Positions 20,090 to 45,930 of a DNA stretch of 64,000 nt are shown one piece after another; position 1 is the stretch's first letter; every line of letters begins with the position of its first letter. Source of the stretch: Sporichthyaceae bacterium (GTDB taxonomy: Bacteria; Actinomycetota; Actinomycetes; JACCUZ01); assembly GCA_031365725.1 (NCBI GenBank), contig JANLYQ010000060.1, forward strand, positions 19,073 through 83,072. The letters run 5' to 3'. A model generated the notes under the pieces. It saw only the letters and a list, made by a program, of their open reading frames with translations, was not told the origin of the DNA and ran no database searches. The position numbers and the translations under genes were made by a program.

Positions 20090-20166
20090 GGGCGCATAGC
20101 TCAGTTGGTTAGAGCACCTGCCTTACAAGCAGGGGGTCGGCGGTTCGAGTCCGTCTGCGCCCACCA
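20090..20166 (+). tRNA. tRNA-Val (anticodon TAC), encoded CCA
   Basis: The cloverleaf was folded by hand. Acceptor stem GGGCGCA/TGCGCCC, D arm GCTCAGTTGGTTAGAGC, anticodon stem CCTGC/GCAGG with loop CTTACAA, T arm GGCGGTTCGAGTCCGTC, 3' ACCA. Confidence 0.9.
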
Positions 20167-36650: not shown

Positions 36651-37058
36651 CGGCGGACGAGCCGGCCGGACGGTCGCGTCGGGCCCCTTCACGGGGACCC
36701 GCCGAGGAAAGTCCGGGCTCCACAGGGCGCGGTGGTGGGCAACACCCACCCGGGGTGACCCGCGGGACAGTGCCACAGAGAACAGACCGCCGACGCACAG
36801 CCTTCGGGCGGTACGTCGGTAAGGGTGAAACGGTGGTGCAAGAGACCACCAGCGCCCGAGGCGACTCGGGCGGCTAGGCAAACCCCACCCGGAGCAAGGT
36901 CAGACAGGGAGCGATCTGCGTGAGCAGGAGAGGGCGGCCCGCCCGAGCTCCCGGGTAGACCGCACGAGGCTGTCGGCAACGGCAGCCCTAGATGGATGAC
37001 CGTCCGCGCACCTTCGGGTGCGTGACAGAACCCGGCTTACAGGCCGACTCGTCCGCCG
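36651..37058 (+). ncRNA. rnpB: RNase P RNA, bacterial type A
   Basis: Universally conserved P4 strands GAGGAAAGTCCGGGCTCCACAGGGC and ACAGAACCCGGCTTA. The AGGGTGAAACGGTGGTGCAAGAGACCACC module is present. P1 pairing runs between 36651-36667 and 37042-37058. Confidence 0.88.
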
Positions 37059-37220: not shown

Positions 37221-38483
37221 GTGCCTGCCAATCCGTTGCTGGAGAGCCTTAAAGGCGCCGTCGAGGCGGTACCGGAGGACATCCCGCTACGCCTGCACTA
37301 CGGCGAACTGCTGCTCAGCGAAGGGCTACGGGAGGAATCCGTCAGGCAGGCGGCATCCATCCTCCAGCGAGACCCGGCGCACCTTGGGGCGCTCACGCTG
37401 ATCGCGAACGCGTCATCAGTCCCGATGGAGACCGAGGGCGGCCAGGTCGGCGATTTCGCCCCTGATGCGGTCGCCGGTGGCGCGGGGACCGACCACTCGG
37501 TGGCGCAGACCGCGTCCGACCATGTGCTGCAGCGGCTCGACGCTGAGCTGAGCGGGATCGCGGCGCCGATGTACGTCGACTCGGGCCCGGACGACTCCTC
37601 CGCTGGGTTGTTCGACGTCGAGCAGGTCGGAGTTCGCCTCGCAGATGTCGGTGGCATGGTCGAGGTCAAGGCGCGGCTCGAGGCGGCCGTATTCGCTCCA
37701 TTGCGCCACCCGGAACTGGTCAAGCTGTACGGGAAGTCGCTACGCGGCGGCCTCCTGCTGTACGGCCCCCCGGGTTGCGGCAAGACCTTCATCGCACGTG
37801 CCGTCGCGGGCGAGATGAACGCGCACTTCATTGCCGTGTCGCTGGCCGACGTTCTGGACATGTACATCGGGCAGAGCGAGCGCAACATCCGGGACCTGTT
37901 CGAGACCGCTCGCGCAAACGCGCCCTGCGTGGTGTTCCTCGACGAGGTCGACGCCATCGGCCAGAAACGTAGCCAGATGCGCAACTCCGCAGCACGAGGC
38001 GCCGTGAATCAACTGCTGACCGAGATGGACGGCATCTCCGCGGCCAATGACGGTGTCTACATTCTCGGGGCCACCAACCATCCCTGGGACGTCGACGTCG
38101 CGTTGCGCCGGCCCGGGCGATTCGATCGCATGGTCCTCGTGCTGCCACCCGATGAGCCGGCGCGGGAAGCCATCTTGCGCTACCACCTGCGCGGCCGTCC
38201 CATTGCCGGCGTCGACCCAGCCAAGCTCGCCAAACACACGGACGGGTACTCCGGGGCCGACCTGGCCTACGTGTGCGAGGCGGCGGCCGAGCGAGCGCTG
38301 ATCGACTCCGCACGTTCCGGCAACGTACGCATGATGGGTCACGAAGATCTCGACGCCGCAGTCCGAGACGTCCACCCATCCATCGGGCCCTGGCTGGAGA
38401 CCGCGCGGAACGTCGCCGAGTTCGCGAACGCGGGCGGCACCTACGACGACCTGCTCACCTACTTGCGGCGCCGTCGCAGGTGA
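37221..38483 (+). CDS. classic-clade AAA+ ATPase (Vps4/CDC48-like) with a short N-terminal helical (MIT/TPR-like) region
   Basis: Walker A GPPGCGKT, Walker B VVFLDEVD, and second region of homology ATNHPWDVDVALRRPGRFDRMV. N-terminal roughly 60 aa helical, then an acidic linker. Confidence 0.8.
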   Translation: MPANPLLESLKGAVEAVPEDIPLRLHYGELLLSEGLREESVRQAASILQRDPAHLGALTLIANASSVPMETEGGQVGDFAPDAVAGGAGTDHSVAQTASDHVLQRLDAELSGIAAPMYVDSGPDDSSAGLFDVEQVGVRLADVGGMVEVKARLEAAVFAPLRHPELVKLYGKSLRGGLLLYGPPGCGKTFIARAVAGEMNAHFIAVSLADVLDMYIGQSERNIRDLFETARANAPCVVFLDEVDAIGQKRSQMRNSAARGAVNQLLTEMDGISAANDGVYILGATNHPWDVDVALRRPGRFDRMVLVLPPDEPAREAILRYHLRGRPIAGVDPAKLAKHTDGYSGADLAYVCEAAAERALIDSARSGNVRMMGHEDLDAAVRDVHPSIGPWLETARNVAEFANAGGTYDDLLTYLRRRRR

Positions 38484-39586
38484 CCGACACCCAACCTGGC
38501 GACCCAGCCGTCGCAACCACGCAGCTGCGGAAGGCGACGATCCTTCTAGACAGCAACCGGCCCCGCGAGGCTGCCGCTCTCGCCTCGCGGGCCATCGCCT
38601 CCGAGCCGTCCGATCCGCGCGGGTGGATCATGCTCGCCCGGTGCTACGAATCGCTGCAGGACCTCCCGCGAGCACTCGAGACAGCGAATCGGGCGATCGG
38701 CATCGACCCGAGCGACCCGGACCCCCACTTGGTTGCGAGCCGGGTTCTTCGCCTTCAGGGAAACACCCGCGAGGCTGTCCGGGCAGGGCAAGAAGCCGTA
38801 CACCTCGCGCCGATGAACGCCGTGGCACACGCCACCCTGGCTACGGCACTGGCATCACAGGGCGGCCAGGCAGCCCTGTTCGGTCTTGGCCTGCCGCGCG
38901 ACACGCGGGTCGCCGCCGAACACGCACGCCATGCGATGGCGCTGGCACCGACCAGCACAACAGGGCATTTCGCCGCCGGCTTCGTTGCTGCCGCATCGGG
39001 ACGCCCGCGTCAAGCCCGCGCGCACTATCGCCGAGTGCTCATCCTGAACCCGCAGAGCGCCCCGGCGATCAACAACCTCGCAGCACTCGACATGAGAAGT
39101 GGCCGACTCGTGCGCAGTGGCTCCGGGTTCGCCCGAGCCCTCGTTGCCGATCCACGGCTAAGCCTGGCGAGACGCAACGTGCGCGGCGCCGTACTCACAT
39201 GGCTCTGGCGATTCCACGTCCTGGCCTGGGTAATCTATGTCTGCTTCAGCGGCGTGATTGACAACGAGCCAGTCGTTCCCTTCACGCTGACCTGGAGCTC
39301 CCACGCCACGGTCGCCTGCTCGCTCGTCGGCATCTTCGCGGTCCTCGTAGCCGTCTCGTACTTGCGCATGGAGCCCAGCGTCCGCGCCTTCTTCAAGCGA
39401 TTGATAGCCGACAGCTGGAGCCTCAAGCTCGTCGCGCTGGCAGACCTAGCAACCATTGTGTGCTTCGTTGTCTCGACGCTCGGTCGGGGGCCGACCGCCA
39501 CCAATGTCAACCTCCTCGGCTTCTTGGCGATCGTGATATCCGTCGTTGGCCTCGCACGTTGCCGCTCTCGCCGTGAGCGCCCCTGA
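38480..39586 (+). CDS. TPR-repeat protein with a C-terminal 3-4 helix transmembrane anchor
   Basis: GTG at 38480 overlaps the AAA stop (GTGA). TPR-like helical repeats (ALETANRAIGIDPSDPDPHLVASRVLRLQGNTREAV...). Hydrophobic helices in the last 130 aa. Confidence 0.7.
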   Translation: MTDTQPGDPAVATTQLRKATILLDSNRPREAAALASRAIASEPSDPRGWIMLARCYESLQDLPRALETANRAIGIDPSDPDPHLVASRVLRLQGNTREAVRAGQEAVHLAPMNAVAHATLATALASQGGQAALFGLGLPRDTRVAAEHARHAMALAPTSTTGHFAAGFVAAASGRPRQARAHYRRVLILNPQSAPAINNLAALDMRSGRLVRSGSGFARALVADPRLSLARRNVRGAVLTWLWRFHVLAWVIYVCFSGVIDNEPVVPFTLTWSSHATVACSLVGIFAVLVAVSYLRMEPSVRAFFKRLIADSWSLKLVALADLATIVCFVVSTLGRGPTATNVNLLGFLAIVISVVGLARCRSRRERP

Positions 39587-39786: not shown

Positions 39787-40458
39787 TCAATCCCCCCGGA
39801 GCTGTTTTCCCCACGCAGCAAAGAAGTCGCGCATGGCCTTGCGCTGGGTGTCCGGCAGCGGCAACTCGTCATCGGCGAAACGGCTCAGGGTTGCGAACAT
39901 CTCTGCCAGGACTGTTTGGTCGAAGCCGAGATCGAGCTCCGCCGCGCGCTCGAGCAGTGTCGCCTTCGTGAAGTGAGCAGAGAGGGCGTACACGTCGGCG
40001 AAGTCGCGGGCTTCTGCCCGGCCGAACAAGGCAATGAGCTTTCTGCCGGCGAGCTCCTCCAGGGAGAAGGTCGGTCCGGCGGAGCTCGTCACGTCCGGAT
40101 CGAGAGGCGGAGAGTCAAGGGCCAGGTCGACGAGCAGCTCTTCGGGGCCGCTCAGCACGAGGCGGCAGAACGTCTCTGTGTCTTGCAGGATGCGTACGGC
40201 CCAGCCACGGCTGATCGCAGCCGTCACGAGTGAGTCGCGGGCGGTGGCCACGTCTCCGCCGCCGCGTCGGGTGAAGAAGTCGAGGTCCTGGGTGGGCCGC
40301 TCGGTCAGGTGGTGGGCTGCCAGGGCGGCGCCCCCCGCGAGCAGGAAACCTGCGCTGGCGGGCAGGGAAAAGAAGATCCGCGCGACCTCGAGCTGAAATG
40401 CGGTGAGCGCAGTCGGCTCATCGGTTCGCTGGCCGTCCCCTGCGTCGTCGACCGTCAC
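39787..40458 (-). CDS. nucleotidyltransferase of the AbiEii/MntA-like (DUF1814) toxin family
   Basis: GGxAL motif (FLLAGGAALAAHHL) and DLDFF catalytic motif. GTG start overlaps the upstream XRE gene stop (TAGTG). Confidence 0.6.
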   Translation of the reverse strand: MTVDDAGDGQRTDEPTALTAFQLEVARIFFSLPASAGFLLAGGAALAAHHLTERPTQDLDFFTRRGGGDVATARDSLVTAAISRGWAVRILQDTETFCRLVLSGPEELLVDLALDSPPLDPDVTSSAGPTFSLEELAGRKLIALFGRAEARDFADVYALSAHFTKATLLERAAELDLGFDQTVLAEMFATLSRFADDELPLPDTQRKAMRDFFAAWGKQLRGD

Positions 40459-40979
40459 TAGTCCTCGACACCGTCGGTGGCCGCCGCGATCACTGGCGTC
40501 CAAGCCTCGCGAATCTCGCGGGGCAGAACTATCTCGGGCCACAGGTCGACGAGCAGCGCTCCGTCGACGTAGGCGGCGAGGTCGTCCGGGCCACCTTCAC
40601 GCAGCACGATCTCGTACGCGCGCGCCCGTTGCGCCCGATCGGCCAGCCGGAAGGTGCGTCGTGGCTCCGACCAGTTCAGGTGCAGGGGGAGCACGACGGT
40701 GGCCAGCGCCCTGTTGACAGGAAGACGACCGAGTCGCGAGGGAACCCAGATCGACCGGCCTCGGGTCATGAGCCGCTCGACGTAGTTGATCCGCGGGCTC
40801 GTGGTCAGCTCGAAGCCGGCCTCGCGAAGCAGCCGCTCGGCAGTGTCGAGCCCCGGTGATTTGCGTCCGTGCTCGTAGGCAGACAGCGTCGTCCGCGACG
40901 TACCGGCGCGCCGGGCGAGCTCGTCCTGGCTCAAGCCCGCACTGCGTCTCGCGTTCTTGATCAGGCCTGCGGCTGGCAT
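40458..40979 (-). CDS. XRE-family HTH transcriptional regulator (putative antitoxin) with a C-terminal extension
   Basis: Cro/C1-type HTH (LIKNARRSAGLSQDELARRAGTSRTTLSAYEHGRKSP). Coupled to the downstream nucleotidyltransferase. Confidence 0.7.
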   Translation of the reverse strand: MPAAGLIKNARRSAGLSQDELARRAGTSRTTLSAYEHGRKSPGLDTAERLLREAGFELTTSPRINYVERLMTRGRSIWVPSRLGRLPVNRALATVVLPLHLNWSEPRRTFRLADRAQRARAYEIVLREGGPDDLAAYVDGALLVDLWPEIVLPREIREAWTPVIAAATDGVED

Positions 40980-40994
40980 ACTTCTCTCCCCTAG

Positions 40995-41010
40995 ATGTAT
41001 CCGATAGGAT
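40995..41010. promoter_or_regulatory. inverted repeat GTATCC-N4-GGATAC 16 nt upstream of the XRE gene start (candidate autoregulatory operator)
   Basis: GTATCCGATAGGATAC is seen directly. Confidence 0.4.
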
Positions 41011-41167
41011 ACCCTACTGCGTCGTGGCGACACTGACGAGTTCGAGGTGTCGGCCGCCGCCGGAGCCGATCGTCATCGGGCACGCCTCTTTGCTGTGACG
41101 GCCCAAGGACGGCCCAGCCATTCTCCCCGAACCTAAAACCGGAGGTCAGCGGCCTAATTGGGCCATC

Positions 41168-41269: not shown

Positions 41270-42367
41270 TCAGGTGCAGCGGAACACCGCCCGCCCCTGG
41301 GCGGTGCTTGCCTGCTGGACAGCGAGAACGTCTCGCATGACATCGAGCACCTCGGCAAGCGGCAGCGGCGCCTTGGACACCCTGAGGTGGGGGTTGGTGA
41401 CTGCCACGGGATGCCACCAGGCGCCGTCCACCGTCAGGGTCGGCTCGGGTTCGACCGTGTCGATGGTGACCGGCACCCCTTCTACGGCAAAGCCTTCCTC
41501 GGCGACCGGCCGGACCAGGCGGTGCTCGGGCGGGATGCCGATGGCGTCGAGTGCGACGTGCAGGGCCTCGGCGTGGGCGACGTCAGCCGGGTGCAGCGTG
41601 GCCGCGACCCGGATCGAGAACCCGAGATCGCGGGCGAGCCGGATGCCGGCCATGGCTTTGGCGTGTGAGCCCGCTCCCCGCTGCCTGTCGTGCAGCTCGG
41701 GTCCGGCGGAGTCCAGGCTCACCTGAAGCGTGATCGCTGTGCGGTCGAGGGACTCCAGCGCAGCCCGCCGAGCGCCTTGATGGAACACCATCGCGTTGGT
41801 CAGCAGAGTTACCGGCACCTGGGCCGAGACCCGTGCGAGCAGCGGCGCGATGTCCGGATGCAGGAACGGCTCTCCGCCGGTGACCAGCAGTTCGCGCCCA
41901 CCCTGGGCGACGAACTCGCGGGTCGCGGTGACGGCCATCTCGACCGGCATCAAGCGAGCGGTCGCCTTCGGGGACGACGCAGCGCAGCAGTAGCCGCAGG
42001 AGAGGTTGCAGTGGAAGTTGGAGTACAACCACAGGCGGCTGCCCAGCGGCACGGCGGAGCCCTGGGTGAACGCGAGGGAGCCCCGCGGCGGGGCTGGTTT
42101 GCCGCGCCGGACGAGCAGTCGCCAGGGCCCGGAGCCGTCGCCGGCCACGTCGAGGAGGTCGTGACCCGCCAGCCGCGCCCAGGAGGGGAGATCCGCGAGC
42201 ACCGAGGGCTCCCGGGTGTGCAGCAGCAGGATCTCGCCGGGCGGGATGCGCCGGATCGCCGAGGTGATCGCGAGCAGCAACCCGCTACCGCAGTCCATGT
42301 CACCGCCGTCGAACTCGGCGGCCGGCGAGGCGAGGGCGCGGTCCTCGCCGCCGACGGTGGGACGCAC
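41270..42367 (-). CDS. fusion protein: N-terminal TusA-like sulfur-carrier domain + radical SAM domain (CxxxCxxC)
   Basis: N-terminus FDGGDMDCGSGLLLAI...PPGEILLL...DLPSWARLAGHDLL is a TusA-like fold. It is followed by CNLSCGYC and GGEPFLHPD radical SAM motifs. No SPASM/auxiliary cluster cysteines. Putative GTG start at 42367, 2 nt after the DsrE-like stop. Confidence 0.7.
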   Translation of the reverse strand: MRPTVGGEDRALASPAAEFDGGDMDCGSGLLLAITSAIRRIPPGEILLLHTREPSVLADLPSWARLAGHDLLDVAGDGSGPWRLLVRRGKPAPPRGSLAFTQGSAVPLGSRLWLYSNFHCNLSCGYCCAASSPKATARLMPVEMAVTATREFVAQGGRELLVTGGEPFLHPDIAPLLARVSAQVPVTLLTNAMVFHQGARRAALESLDRTAITLQVSLDSAGPELHDRQRGAGSHAKAMAGIRLARDLGFSIRVAATLHPADVAHAEALHVALDAIGIPPEHRLVRPVAEEGFAVEGVPVTIDTVEPEPTLTVDGAWWHPVAVTNPHLRVSKAPLPLAEVLDVMRDVLAVQQASTAQGRAVFRCT

Positions 42368-42369
42368 GG

Positions 42370-42729
42370 TCAGAACGACAACGATGCGGCGCCGTCGGCC
42401 AGCAGCGCAACCAGGGTGGCACCCCCTACGATCGTCGCCCCCTTGATCAGGTTGTCGGCACCGATGCCGCGCTTCTTGGCGCACGGGCTGCACACCAGGA
42501 AACTCCCGCCGGCGTCCACGAAGGACGAGACCAACTCGGCCATGGGCGCGAACCCGTCCTCGTGCAGCGTGTCGGCTATGCCCTGCTGCGCCAGCCGAGT
42601 GCCCTCGGACGAGAGGAAGACGGTGGTCGTCTGGTTCGAGGCTGCGGCTGCGCCCGCTACCACCATCGCGACACTGGTGCGGTCGGGGTCGTCGACGGAG
42701 TGGGTGAGGTTGATGACCAGGCCGTTCAT
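42370..42729 (-). CDS. DsrE/DsrF-like family protein
   Basis: MNGLVINLTHSVDDPDRTSVAMVVAGAAAA...FLVCSPCAKKRG. ATGA overlap with the upstream TusA-like gene. Confidence 0.65.
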   Translation of the reverse strand: MNGLVINLTHSVDDPDRTSVAMVVAGAAAASNQTTTVFLSSEGTRLAQQGIADTLHEDGFAPMAELVSSFVDAGGSFLVCSPCAKKRGIGADNLIKGATIVGGATLVALLADGAASLSF

Positions 42730-43067
42730 GGGCGGGTCTCCTTGCTGTGAGAGGTCGCTTCGGGCGGGGTGTTCAGCCGCCATGGGTCGGTGGCCTTCGT
42801 CAGGTGCGGGGAGGCGGTGGTCTGCACGTCGTAGTAGGGCCGCTCATCGGCTCCCAGTCCGCGCGCGAGATATCGGTGCCCCGTCAGGTGACACCAGGCT
42901 GGCAGGTCGAGGGGGGCGGCCGGGTCGGTGGCCACCAGCCGGATGACCGAGCCGGGAGGCAGCGGTCGCAGCCGCCGGGCCAGCACGAGCAGCAGCTCGC
43001 CGCACGCTTTGTCCCCACCGTCAACGATGACGATGGGCTCGTCATGGTCCCGGGCGGTGCTGGTCAC
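42726..43067 (-). CDS. TusA-like sulfurtransferase-family small protein
   Basis: IVIVDGGDKACGELLLVLARRL...GSVIRLVATDPAAPLDLPAWCHLTGHRYL. Paralogous to the N-terminal domain of the radical SAM fusion. GTGA overlap with the DoxX stop. Confidence 0.6.
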   Translation of the reverse strand: MTSTARDHDEPIVIVDGGDKACGELLLVLARRLRPLPPGSVIRLVATDPAAPLDLPAWCHLTGHRYLARGLGADERPYYDVQTTASPHLTKATDPWRLNTPPEATSHSKETRP

Positions 43068-44029
43068 GCGTGCAAGGTTTCTCGGGTGCTCGGCTGATGC
43101 CTGCTCGAGCCGAGCCGCCCGGCTGTGACGCTGCTGACCACCGCGGCGCAGAGGAAGAGCGCGGCGGAGGTGTTGGAGCCGCCGAGCCACACGTCGGTGC
43201 GGCTCAGCTGGGCGTACAGGGTGACGGCCGCAAGAGCAGCGACGACGGCGGCTCCCCACGCGAACTCGCGCCGCCTCAGCGCCGCCGCGAGCAGCATCAG
43301 GACCGCGACTGCACCGAGCACGAGGGCGCCGAGGAGGTTGTAGCTGCCCAGCGACACCGACAGCCCCGTGCCCTCGAGCGTGGTACCCCGAGACGCTAGG
43401 AAGTCCTCCCCGGCAGAGCGCGTGACCGCCCACAGCGCCGTCAGGGCCAGGACCGCTCCCCAGCCCCCCACCAGGCGTCGGGCCGTGTCCGCGCCGCGGC
43501 CGGCGATCGACGCGCCGCGCACCGCGTCCACAGCCGCGACGCTCCCCGCGGCGGTCAGCAGCAGCACCACGTGGATGCCGATGAGCATCCAGTAGGACCA
43601 CGGCCATTCGCCCGGGGTCCGGGCTACGGACAGCCCGATGGCGAGCGACTGCGCGACCCCAAGCAGTGCAGCGAGGCGAACCAACGTCCCGGTCAGGAGC
43701 AGCACTGCGAGCGCCGTCTCGGCGGCCAGCACGCCGTAGCCGAAGGGCGTGAAGTGGGGGAGCACGAGATGCTCCACCAGCCAGCTGTAGGGCGGGAACA
43801 CCGGATGGTCCACGGCGTCCTTCGTGAAGCGGTACAGCCCGCGATCAGCTGCCTTGCCGAAGTCTGGCGGACGCTTCCAGACCACGTTGAACAGCCACAG
43901 CGCTCCGACCAGGATGCGCAGGCCGGCGAGAGCGACGGCCCCTCCACGCGTGAGGGGGTCGACGGCCGGGCGCAGCAACCAGGAGACGGCGACCTTGAAA
44001 CTGCTGGACACCCTTGTCACGGTCGCCAT
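43064..44029 (-). CDS. DoxX-family membrane protein
   Basis: LRILVGALWLF...W.K DoxX signature and 4+ TM helices. 321 aa. Confidence 0.7.
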   Translation of the reverse strand: MATVTRVSSSFKVAVSWLLRPAVDPLTRGGAVALAGLRILVGALWLFNVVWKRPPDFGKAADRGLYRFTKDAVDHPVFPPYSWLVEHLVLPHFTPFGYGVLAAETALAVLLLTGTLVRLAALLGVAQSLAIGLSVARTPGEWPWSYWMLIGIHVVLLLTAAGSVAAVDAVRGASIAGRGADTARRLVGGWGAVLALTALWAVTRSAGEDFLASRGTTLEGTGLSVSLGSYNLLGALVLGAVAVLMLLAAALRRREFAWGAAVVAALAAVTLYAQLSRTDVWLGGSNTSAALFLCAAVVSSVTAGRLGSSRHQPSTRETLHA

Positions 44030-44589
44030 CTCCTCGATCGGCCTGAATCGTGCGCGATGTCGTCTCCCAAAGCAACCCCGTTGCCGGCTGACGATGACCT
44101 AGACCGAGCCGAGGTCGCAACCTTCCGGCGTACAACAGGCGGACGCACCAGGGCAGTGGTGACGACAGCGATGGCCAGAACCCACAAGAAGATGGCCGTG
44201 AGATGCGTGTGCAGCGCAGCGCCGTCGTACATGGTGACGCCTACGCTGGTCAGCGCGAGTGCTACCAGTCCGAGTGACGCCGGGTGCTGGCGGCGCAGGG
44301 CGAGCAGCACGAGAGCGGCCGGGGCGACGTACCAGAGCACGCTGAGGGTGCCGAGTGCCCGGATGTCGGCACTGATCGAGTCGGTGCCGGGCAGCAGCGC
44401 GACCGTCCGCCGGAAGAACATCGACGCGCAGTGGAGCGCCAGGCCGGCGAGTCCCAGACCACCGACGAGGGCCTCCGCTGCTGACATCTGCCGGGCTGCT
44501 CTGCGCAGCGGGAGGGCGGGTATGACCAGCCGCACCAGCACGGCCAGCGCCACCACGGCGGCGAGGCTGATGAGGTAGGAGCGGGACAC
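44017..44589 (-). CDS. hypothetical integral membrane protein (first gene of the DoxX-TusA-DsrE-rSAM operon)
   Basis: 190 aa with multiple TM helices. Overlaps the DoxX gene start by 13 nt. Confidence 0.5.
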   Translation of the reverse strand: MSRSYLISLAAVVALAVLVRLVIPALPLRRAARQMSAAEALVGGLGLAGLALHCASMFFRRTVALLPGTDSISADIRALGTLSVLWYVAPAALVLLALRRQHPASLGLVALALTSVGVTMYDGAALHTHLTAIFLWVLAIAVVTTALVRPPVVRRKVATSARSRSSSAGNGVALGDDIAHDSGRSRRWRP

Positions 44590-44598
44590 GGCGTCAGG

Positions 44599-45930
44599 CT
44601 AACTGTCGGCGATGGCCAGGAGCCGACCGTCGGTGACGCCGACGATCAGCGCGCCGTCGGCAGTCAAGGCGGGATAGGAGTCGACGGTGGCGCCGGTGTC
44701 CAGCTGCCACAGCAGACGACCGGCCCGGTCGACGCCATAGATGAAACCCTGTCTCGTCCCGACGTACGTGCGATGGTCGACGTCGCTGAGCACTGCCGTC
44801 CAGATGCCGATGCTACGTCGCGACGGGCGACGTTGCGTTCCGGCGAAGCGGAAGATCAGTCGGCCGGTCACCGCATCGAGACCCGTGATCTGGTTGGCGT
44901 GGTCCCCGAAGTACACGACACCGTCCGCCGTCACTCCTGGCGAGGAGTACGTCCAATGACCGCGCCGGAACCGCCATCGCACCTGCCCGGTCGCGGGGTC
45001 CAGGCCGTACTCGTACGGATCGTTGGTCCCGATGACGACAGTCCCGTCCGGCGCGACAGCCGGGCTGACCTCGACGATCTCGGTGGGTGCTGTCGAGCGC
45101 CACAGCAGCGCACCGTGCCGTACGGCGACCACCCCGGAGAGCACGGACTGGTAGGTGGTCGACCCGTCGGCCGACAGGACTGGTGACCCGTAGGTCTGCT
45201 CGTGCAAGGCGACCTCCCACTGGACGGCCGGACCGGTGCCGGTCGGCTGCAGTCCGAGGAGGCGACCTGTCGCGTCCCCGACGACGACGTAGCCCGCCGC
45301 CGTCACCGCGGGCGAGGTGACCTGCCCGTCCAAGGGCAGCTGCCAGAGCAGCCGGCCCATGGGAGAGACCGCACGCAGTCGTTCACCCGGACCCGGCCAG
45401 AGCACGATGCCGTTCGGGAGGACGGCCGGGCTGGTGGAGAGATCCAGCCCGTAGCCGCCGCCACCGTCCAACGTCCATCGGTCCTTGCCGGTGCGGGGAT
45501 CGATGGCGTGCAGCACGCCGGCGTTGGTCGCTGCGTAGATCGTGCCGTCTGCCGCAACGACCGGCCCCGGTGTCACGTTGCCCTCGAGCCGGCGGGTCCA
45601 GCGGACCCGGCCGCTGACCGGCCCCTCGTGCTCGCTGCCGCCCGTGTGCTGTGCGTCGCGCAACGCTTGCGGCCACGCAGTCCACGACGCCGAAGCCGAC
45701 ACCGGATCGTGGCCGCGCAGGTGTCCCCCGAGGGCTATCGGCGGGGCAACAGGTGTCTCGCTCGACGATGGCCGAGTCTGCGTTGCCAAGCCCGGCGCGA
45801 CGACGCCGAGGAGCACGGCGCCAGCGAGCGCTGTTCCGGCGGAAAGGATCCATCGTTGGCGCACACACCCGAGTGTCGGCGCGATAGCCGGGCTGGGCGA
45901 GTTTCCCAAAGTTACGGATCTGTGACGCAT
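44599..45930 (-). CDS. PQQ-repeat beta-propeller protein, secreted or membrane-anchored
   Basis: Repeated GxxYxxxxxGxLxAxDxxTGxxxW propeller blades. ATG at 45930, then a signal/TM segment. Confidence 0.7.
   Translation of the reverse strand: MRHRSVTLGNSPSPAIAPTLGCVRQRWILSAGTALAGAVLLGVVAPGLATQTRPSSSETPVAPPIALGGHLRGHDPVSASASWTAWPQALRDAQHTGGSEHEGPVSGRVRWTRRLEGNVTPGPVVAADGTIYAATNAGVLHAIDPRTGKDRWTLDGGGGYGLDLSTSPAVLPNGIVLWPGPGERLRAVSPMGRLLWQLPLDGQVTSPAVTAAGYVVVGDATGRLLGLQPTGTGPAVQWEVALHEQTYGSPVLSADGSTTYQSVLSGVVAVRHGALLWRSTAPTEIVEVSPAVAPDGTVVIGTNDPYEYGLDPATGQVRWRFRRGHWTYSSPGVTADGVVYFGDHANQITGLDAVTGRLIFRFAGTQRRPSRRSIGIWTAVLSDVDHRTYVGTRQGFIYGVDRAGRLLWQLDTGATVDSYPALTADGALIVGVTDGRLLAIADS

Follow-up and report, generated by a model that had tools for sequence, protein, structure and literature searches.

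What does a radical S-adenosylmethionine (SAM) enzyme do when a TusA-like domain is fused to its N terminus and separate TusA- and DsrE-like proteins are encoded directly upstream? This question is raised by five genes on the minus strand of a 64-kb stretch of DNA from a Sporichthyaceae bacterium (contig JANLYQ010000060.1), which was analyzed as a whole and is called the window here; the genes were named g1 to g5 in their order of transcription. An earlier reading of the sequence (the original prediction) had taken them as one coupled operon for a membrane protein, a DoxX protein, a TusA-like protein, a DsrE-like protein, and a TusA-radical SAM fusion, dedicated to radical-mediated sulfur insertion or thiolation. 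On comparison of sequences and gene order, g2-g5 is a conserved actinobacterial cassette and a sister branch of the Rv1678-Rv1681 cluster of Mycobacterium tuberculosis. What is new in it are the stand-alone TusA and DsrE3A-like genes and the cysteine-bearing fused TusA domain, which lie outside the Rv1681 family model and for which no description was found. The closest relatives of the window were genomes of the Nocardioidaceae/Propionibacteriales.

Gene order and conservation of the cassette

The five open reading frames (ORFs) follow one another head to tail, on the minus strand, where the original prediction had placed them: g1 at 44017..44589 (190 aa), g2 at 43064..44020 (318 aa), g3 at 42726..43067 (113 aa), g4 at 42370..42729 (119 aa), and g5 at 41270..42367 (365 aa). 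Public gene calls match these coordinates and lengths exactly, including the GTG start of g2 at 44020; an alternative ATG start at 44029 would give g2 321 aa. The tight junctions could be read directly off the sequence. The g1/g2 junction is a 4-nt GTGA overlap with the GTG start and a 13-nt overlap with the ATG start, the g2/g3 and g3/g4 junctions are GTGA and ATGA, and the g4/g5 junction is TGAccGTG. Third-position GC content was coding-like (0.80-0.89) across all five ORFs, in a window with about 70% GC. Stop codons that overlap the next start codon are frequent in actinobacteria of high GC content, so these junctions are weak proof on their own, and conserved gene order is the stronger evidence.

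Among genomes taken one per species, 333 relatives were found, and gene order was compared by tblastn and ORF clustering in 80 loci retrieved from them. The TusA and DsrE genes lay directly upstream of the radical SAM gene in 58 of the 80 loci, and the two always co-occurred and adjoined the enzyme gene. The order Rv1678-like-TusA-DsrE-radical SAM was present in 23 of the 39 fully flanked loci of this TusA/DsrE type from other species; the Rv1678-like gene, which corresponds to g2, was adjacent upstream in these 23, adjacent downstream in 3, and elsewhere within 10 kb in 4. Altogether, dozens of species, with protein identities of 45-85%, had the order g2-g3-g4-g5. Chance packing of unrelated neighbour genes would fit the frequency of start/stop overlaps in such genomes, and neither g1 nor the propeller gene upstream of it is conserved with the cassette. 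However, the retained order, together with the pairing of the radical SAM and Rv1678-like genes, which outlasts rearrangement in Streptomyces-type and mycobacterial loci, makes this explanation hardly credible, and the census effectively excludes a chance juxtaposition of g2-g5. A homologue of g1 was found in 0 of the 80 loci. The proposed five-gene operon therefore stood as far as the g2-g5 block was concerned, but not for g1: the conserved unit is g2-g5 rather than a fixed set of five genes, and g1 is a sporadic accessory gene outside the conserved core.

The stand-alone TusA and DsrE proteins

The g3 protein passed the Pfam TusA model (PF01206; 31.8 bits, cut-off 28.6) and has the beta-alpha-beta-alpha-beta-beta fold of this family. 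When it was aligned with E. coli TusA (YhhP; E 1.2e-5), the two conserved cysteines of g3, which sit in DGGDKACGELL and AWCHLTGH, fell on TusA C19 and C56. The TusA-domain motifs of this cassette are CGEL and CGSG, without the prolines of the canonical CPxP, and it is the g3 cysteine that lies on E. coli C19.

The assignment of g4 as a DsrE/DsrF-like protein proved solid, with a Pfam DsrE (PF02635) score of 57.4 bits against a cut-off of 22.7 (2e-15). Its motif LVCSPCAKKRG holds Cys80 and Cys83 in a CxxC arrangement. The nearest solved relative was PDB 3MC3 (SSO1125; E 6e-7), the Sulfolobus orthologue of DsrE3A (PMC4175335), and C80 of g4 aligned with its conserved cysteine. Cys80 is the equivalent of DsrE3A Cys93, but the second cysteine of g4 is spaced as CxxC and not as in the Cys93/Cys101 pair. 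The g4 protein was about 80% identical across the loci. Within the TusA/DsrE branch, the loop cysteine of both TusA paralogues, that is g3 and the N-terminal domain of g5, and the CxxC of the DsrE protein were strictly conserved. With an E-value limit of 1, none of g2, g3, and g4 matched a YedF or YedE model of NCBIfam. SaoD, a DsrE-like protein of the SAO system (Haft 2022 preprint), was also considered for g4 and rejected, as the match reached only E 0.056.

The TusA-radical SAM fusion enzyme

The g5 protein has a radical SAM core (PF04055; 73 bits) with the CxxxCxxC motif CNLSCGYC and the partial TIM-barrel core of this family. The extended motif CNLSCGYCC (41984..42010, minus strand) comprises C120, C124, and C127 and an invariant C128. 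It is preceded by a TusA-like domain of about residues 15-90 (42098..42325, minus strand), whose DGGDMDCG loop contains Cys26 (codon 42290-42292). By itself this domain scored 26.8 bits, slightly below the Pfam TusA cut-off of 28.6. In a profile-profile comparison, the N-terminal domain matched the g3 family with 97.7% probability (E 2e-12, 38% identity). This match and the common DGGDxxCG loop identify g3 and the g5 N-terminal domain as paralogues; the two paralogous TusA-like domains of the original prediction were thereby borne out, and its TusA assignment of the fused domain held under profile methods.

Alignments of 16 and 56 homologues revealed three further invariant cysteines, C26, C128, and C364, the last of which lies in the invariant C-terminal tail VFRCT (41273..41287, minus strand; Cys364 codon 41276-41278). 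The CNLSCGYCC-type motif was invariant in the 56-sequence alignment and across 60+ loci. Each full-length homologue from the loci had both the CC motif and the tail at its C terminus, and all but a few had the loop cysteine; VFRC[T/A] formed the end of every homologue there. Both CxxxCxxCC and the tail cysteine persisted in subfamilies of about 40% identity and in the mycobacterial protein, and the equivalent tails of distant subfamilies were FPCA, FRCA, FNCA, and FVCG. In the structural model the C364 tail is probably flexible, given its low predicted local distance difference test (pLDDT) score. It had been claimed that g5 has no SPASM or auxiliary-cluster cysteines. The first part was correct: no SPASM/twitch cysteine cluster was found in g5 in either alignment, where C364 is the lone cysteine after the core, and the scores on all SPASM-family NCBIfam models were far under the cut-offs. 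However, the invariant C26, C128, and C364 had been overlooked.

On the NCBIfam model of the Rv1681 family (NF049973), g5 scored 342.9 bits and its Streptomyces homologue 335.7 bits, below the cut-off of 380, compared with 525.7 bits for the M. simulans orthologue; g5 and the Streptomyces enzyme therefore represent sister subfamilies of the Rv1681 family. The model starts past the cysteine loop, with g5 residue 31 at model position 2. An exhaustive search of 1.84 billion representatives gave only 66 clusters (50% identity) with E ≤ 1e-30, which shows that the g5 family is narrow. Its closest structural relatives were the peptide- and nucleotide-modifying enzymes SkfB, SuiB, BlsE, and MoaA, and CteB, anSME, and PqqE were also among the best structural matches. 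Under the historical label 'MoeX' of Rv1681, g5 would be a MoaA-like enzyme of molybdenum cofactor biosynthesis. This is extremely improbable: g5 scored 54.8 bits on the MoaA model (TIGR02666; cut-off 284), the C-terminal three-cysteine auxiliary cluster and the GG tail are absent, no moa or moe gene lies next to it, and NCBIfam names the Rv1681 family separately. The score and the missing auxiliary-cluster ligands effectively exclude this assignment, and the name 'MoeX' is unsupported for Rv1681, a protein known only as a urinary tuberculosis biomarker. A role as a prokaryotic viperin in defence was likewise rejected (33.1 bits against 180; PADLOC pVip 37 bits, over a generic SAM-binding stretch only).

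The Rv1678-family membrane protein

The g2 protein passed the C-terminal model of the Rv1678 family (NF049986; 76.4 bits against 50, residues 224-309) and was 59% identical to the M. simulans Rv1678 orthologue over 293 aa. It had no Pfam match and belongs neither to DoxX (PF07681) nor to DoxD (PF04173); weak DoxD matches were seen in 20 of 28 members of the g2 family and weak DoxX matches in 15 of the 28. The protein is polytopic, with an N-terminal DoxD/DoxX-like four-helix half followed by an Rv1678_C half. DoxX is a superfamily-level likeness of g2, in family and fold, and not a membership. The label 'DoxX' was right to this extent, but the true family is Rv1678. The invariant residues of g2 are K49, E101, Q124, E138 (part of a PGEWPW motif), H150, and D165.

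A possible sulfur relay to the radical SAM enzyme

We propose that a cysteine relay of the DsrE3A/TusA type feeds a sulfur, or possibly selenium, species to g5 for radical C-S or C-Se chemistry on an acceptor, a model that, judged from sequence, we place slightly short of an even chance. From these data we infer sulfur as the cargo, the direction and order of the relay, the insertion of sulfur, the roles of C128, C364, and g2, and the acceptor, as follows. Activated sulfur, as a persulfide or thiosulfonate, would be taken up by g4 (Cys80 in CxxC) and g3 (the Cys19-equivalent in DGGDxxCG), and this pair would pass it to Cys26 of the TusA-like domain fused in g5. Within g5, C128, beside the [4Fe-4S] ligands, and C364, on the flexible tail, may position or resolve the sulfur species, and 5'-deoxyadenosyl-radical chemistry would join the sulfur to the acceptor or transform it there. 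The g2 protein could tie the process to the membrane, either by a link to the quinone pool or as a passage for substrate or product; the first would resemble DoxD, which links to the quinone pool in thiosulfate:quinone oxidoreductase. The strict conservation of the TusA loop cysteines and of the DsrE CxxC is as a covalent-cargo relay predicts. The model has a precedent in the documented transfer of thiosulfonate from DsrE3A to TusA (PMC4175335), and the repeated presence of rhodanese genes and of thiol-disulfide genes (Redoxin, CcdA) near the cassettes speaks for it as well.

Several observations weigh against this model. The canonical CPxP of TusA is replaced by CG(S/E)(G/L). The relationship of g2 to DoxD and DoxX is weak, no cysteine is invariant in the g2 family alignment, and 9 of the 39 fully flanked loci have no Rv1678-like gene within 10 kb. 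The g5 protein has no recognisable auxiliary-cluster domain of the BioB, LipA, or MiaB kind, and its nearest structural relatives, SkfB, BlsE, SuiB, and MoaA, are not sulfur inserters. The window operon contains no cysteine desulfurase or rhodanese gene, and no functional work on Rv1678-Rv1681, MoeX, or fadE16 was found in the literature. Finally, the loop cysteine is missing in the mycobacterial and other subfamilies, which suggests that docking may be the main role of the TusA-like domain.

Sister branches of the cassette and the nature of the cargo

The gene order in M. simulans is Redoxin-Rv1678-Rv1679 (acyl-CoA-dehydrogenase-like, ACAD)-Rv1680 (cytosolic PhnD-like)-Rv1681, and the orthologues of Rv1678, Rv1679, Rv1680, and Rv1681 all pass their own NCBIfam models. 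In the window, TusA and DsrE occupy the position of Rv1679/Rv1680, so that g2-g5 is not a member of the four-gene Rv1678-Rv1681 cassette; a tblastn search of the 64 kb with the M. simulans ACAD and substrate-binding protein (SBP)-like proteins gave no match. The TusA-like domain of the M. simulans Rv1681 orthologue (locus L081, 10852-11853) begins at helix 1 and has no cysteine loop. Two other enzymes, P0277 and P0280, have a full-length TusA-like domain in which the loop cysteine is replaced; the contig of P0277, like that of P0284, is short and gives little gene context. The M. simulans orthologue, P0277, and P0280 all keep the C56-equivalent (WC motif), CxxxCxxCC, and the C-terminal cysteine. 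Enzymes without the loop cysteine (contexts L081 and L090) travel with ACAD and PhnD-like SBP-like genes and not with TusA/DsrE. The loop cysteine of the fused domain is present beside TusA/DsrE, methyltransferase, or ATP-binding cassette (ABC) importer genes and absent beside ACAD and SBP-like genes, and its tracking of the partner genes fits a cargo-delivery role.

The absence of the loop cysteine in several subfamilies also speaks for an explanation without any chalcogen transfer, which we regard as unlikely. Here g5 would modify a protein or peptide, or else a lipid or a quinone; the TusA- and DsrE-like proteins would be docking, thiol-disulfide redox, or substrate proteins, and C128 and C364 could be hydrogen-atom donors or a redox pair, within a membrane-linked thiol-redox module like DoxX-SseA-SodA. 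The structural matches to SkfB, SuiB, CteB, anSME, PqqE, and BlsE agree with this, as does the recurrence of Redoxin, CcdA, DUF3179, and glutaredoxin genes nearby. Thioredoxin-like, CcdA-like, and DUF3179 genes lie just upstream of the Rv1678-like gene in several Nocardioides-type loci (L008, 5284-8146; L010; L026; L033), and Redoxin and DsbD_TM genes flank the mycobacterial cassette. In addition, locus L087 pairs a radical SAM gene lacking the TusA part with DoxX-like, AhpD-like (CMD), and methyltransferase genes. However, a precursor-peptide ORF, a recognition element for ribosomally synthesized and post-translationally modified peptides (RiPPs), and SPASM/twitch cysteines are not present, the relay cysteines are strictly conserved in the TusA/DsrE branch, and TusA and DsrE are always found together and beside the enzyme gene. 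A RiPP maturase in particular was rejected, because the genes of the operon leave no intergenic space between them and no small ORF is conserved there.

The second branch of the family, in Streptomyces, Micromonospora, and various metagenome-assembled genomes, is without a separate TusA or DsrE gene. Its order is methyltransferase (divergent) / radical SAM-Rv1678-like-PhnD-type binding protein-PhnC-fused PhnE, and the Rv1678-like gene was adjacent downstream of the radical SAM gene in 15 of the 20 fully flanked Streptomyces-type loci. On TIGR04553 ('putative selenate ABC transporter substrate-binding protein'), the PhnD-type protein scored 302-308 bits, above the cut-off of 250, and with its PhnC-/PhnE-like partners it follows the radical SAM/Rv1678-like pair in about 14-15 of the 80 loci. 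Among these are two Nocardioides-type loci, L013 and L038, which contain TusA and DsrE together with the TIGR04553-type importer. A class I methyltransferase gene was divergently or translationally coupled in at least 19 loci, and for Rv1680, the SBP-like protein of mycobacteria, TIGR04553 was the second-best family.

Because sister loci carry this 'putative selenate' importer, selenium is a live alternative to sulfur. The cargo would then be selenium (or another soft chalcogen or metalloid such as tellurium or arsenic), and the cassette would make or detoxify an organo-selenium or metalloid compound by a radical SAM route; the TusA/DsrE thiols and the three extra g5 cysteines would hold the element beside SAM, and the methyltransferase of the Streptomyces branch would act on the same pathway. 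We assign this a low probability. In its favour, selenium proteins of the YedF type contain TusA-like modules joined with DsrE-like ones, As(III) and Se are bound at three-thiolate sites, and C-As bonds are made by the radical SAM enzymes ArsS and ArsL. The importer, the coupled methyltransferase, and the family of Rv1680 also favour it, and a gene for a 'putative selenate transporter' also co-localises with many selenoneine clusters (bioRxiv 10.1101/2022.04.13.486033). On the other hand, TIGR04553 is a hypothetical equivalog only, g3 and g4 do not match the YedF or YedE models, no selD was seen among the loci examined, and the window has no TIGR04553-type transporter, methyltransferase, or selD; a tblastn search of the window for the ABC importer or methyltransferase matched only an ABC ATPase at 25.5 kb, which is unrelated, and nothing near the operon. 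To our knowledge, the ligand of a TIGR04553 protein has never been measured.

Extended to the whole family, including the Streptomyces and Rv1678-Rv1681 forms, a radical SAM route to carbon-selenium, chalcogen, or metalloid bonds seems quite improbable to us. A cysteine-bound adduct on the fused TusA domain would be captured by a substrate or 5'-deoxyadenosyl radical. If this were true, the family would represent a third, mechanistically distinct selenometabolite pathway, and its enzyme would be the first of the radical SAM class to be fed directly from a TusA carrier fused to it. No functional work on radical SAM enzymes with TusA, DsrE, and selenium, or on C-Se bonds or selenometabolites with radical SAM enzymes, was found in the literature.

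With the catalytic-type cysteine retained in its fused TusA domain and a dedicated TusA/DsrE pair, the branch in the window is the form of the system that is easiest to read, and it points to a cysteine-bound cargo of sulfur or selenium. If the sulfur relay is correct, the heteroatom would be supplied to a radical SAM site by a fused persulfide carrier and not by a sacrificial auxiliary cluster, and a function would be assigned to a conserved, unstudied mycobacterial operon. The targets for mutation are C26, C128, and C364 of g5, Cys22 of g3, and Cys80 and Cys83 of g4.

The g1 gene and the flanking genes

The g1 gene encodes a small membrane protein with four transmembrane segments and without a Pfam or NCBIfam match; 34 homologues are known. 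Three of six g1 contexts (the window, L084, and L087) adjoin a cassette of radical SAM and DoxX-like genes. In L084 (2650-6495), a methyltransferase / radical SAM-Rv1678-like arrangement of the Streptomyces type is followed by a rhodanese gene and the g1 homologue, a layout that connects the cassette system with g1-like proteins and with a sulfurtransferase. In L087 (2856-6492), the order is methyltransferase-DoxX-like-CMD/AhpD-like-radical SAM (274 aa)-g1-like membrane protein. The DoxX-like protein of L087 has 189 aa and shares 31% identity with g2 in the N-terminal half of the latter, and the radical SAM protein of L087 is without the TusA domain, the CC motif, and the C-terminal cysteine. 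In the other contexts, g1 homologues were located beside Lactamase_B-rhodanese (persulfide-dioxygenase-rhodanese), rhodanese, and TauE genes (L086, 2244-6378), beside a CsoR-CopZ-CopA copper-resistance cluster (L083, 2811-6486), and in surroundings without a clear theme (L085).

Upstream of g1, a gene for a PQQ_2/BamB-like beta-propeller protein (44599..45816, minus strand; Pfam PQQ_2 1.2e-25; 405 aa in the public call) stops 9 nt short of g1. On its other side an amino-acid permease gene is transcribed divergently, and the public gene calls leave about 210 bp between the two. It is probably co-transcribed with g1-g5, as the likely first gene of the transcript; a homologue near the cassette was found in 0 of the 80 loci. 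A scan for consensus sigma-70 promoters, which is uninformative for a high-GC actinobacterium, found none, and the single terminator-like match lay inside g1 and was not above shuffled-sequence controls.

Directly downstream of the cassette, after a gap of 236 nt, there is a toxin-antitoxin-like pair of an XRE-type helix-turn-helix gene (40458..41033, minus strand) and an overlapping AbiEii nucleotidyltransferase gene (39787..40542, minus strand). Beyond it, on the plus strand, the window contains a gene for an AAA+ ATPase (420 aa) and an overlapping TPR-repeat ORF with a hydrophobic C-terminal half (37221-39586), a bacterial class A RNase P RNA (36658-37055; 280.6 bits, full-length match), and a tRNA-Val with anticodon TAC (20090-20166), the sole tRNA in the 64 kb.

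Comparison with known systems

Among radical SAM enzymes, BioB, LipA, MiaB/RimO, ArsS, and ArsL share with g5 the presumed formation of a carbon-chalcogen or carbon-metalloid bond and extra conserved cysteines close to the active site. However, g5 is without the auxiliary-cluster domain of BioB, LipA, and MiaB/RimO (UPF0004, CX4CX5C, [2Fe-2S] site), and its resemblance to the sulfur inserters and to ArsS and ArsL lies only at the generic radical SAM level. We know of no precedent for a protein-bound cysteine cargo on a fused TusA domain as the donor to a radical SAM enzyme. As regards the YeeE(TsuA)-YeeD(TsuB) and YedE/YedF systems, g2 is not YeeE/YedE-like, having no family match and a DoxX-like fold, and g3 and g4 do not match the YedF model.

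The DoxX-SseA-SodA membrane oxidoreductase complex of M. tuberculosis, reportedly described by Nambi et al. in 2015, resembles the window in that a membrane protein of the DoxX superfamily is associated with a sulfurtransferase. In contrast, g2 belongs to another family (Rv1678) and has an extra four-helix C-terminal half, and the cassette of the window has neither SodA nor SseA, the partner being a radical SAM enzyme.

In the DsrE3A/TusA relay of Metallosphaera cuprina, to which the predicted working of the cassette comes closest, thiosulfonate is taken from tetrathionate and passed from DsrE3A to TusA (PMC4175335). The window likewise pairs a DsrE3A-like protein with a TusA-family protein, with the active cysteines aligned, and it shares a DoxD/DoxX-like membrane protein with DoxDA thiosulfate:quinone oxidoreductase, encoded here in the same operon as TusA and DsrE. 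DoxDA makes the tetrathionate that loads DsrE3A. Unlike these systems, the window has no Hdr-like complex, lipoate-binding protein, or DoxA, and its relay is predicted to end at a radical SAM enzyme in place of the Hdr-like complex. The g3 motif is CG.. and not the CPxP of the relay TusA, g4 has CxxC and not the C93/C101 spacing of DsrE3A, and the host is a non-lithotrophic actinobacterium, whereas the relay is from sulfur oxidisers.

The known thiolation and cofactor pathways included no characterized match to the window. The claim that the combination is not a described system was accordingly upheld with respect to a characterized pathway and a published function; however, the related cassette had already been named by NCBIfam, in which Rv1678 (NF049986), Rv1679 (NF049984), Rv1680 (NF049985), and Rv1681 (NF049973) are listed as proteins of a mycobacterial gene cluster. 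The literature on Rv1678-Rv1681 consists of biomarker, proteomics, and structure-based 'PhnD-like' mentions only. This M. tuberculosis cluster belongs to the same family as the window cassette. Both are tightly coupled, actinobacterial, and uncharacterized, and both combine an Rv1678-family membrane protein with a radical SAM enzyme (47% identity to M. simulans) that has a TusA-like N-terminal domain, CxxxCxxCC, and a C-terminal cysteine. They differ in that the Rv1678-Rv1681 cassette has the ACAD-like Rv1679 and the SBP-like Rv1680, whereas the window has stand-alone TusA and DsrE instead, and in that g5 retains the TusA loop cysteine that the M. simulans Rv1681 orthologue lacks.

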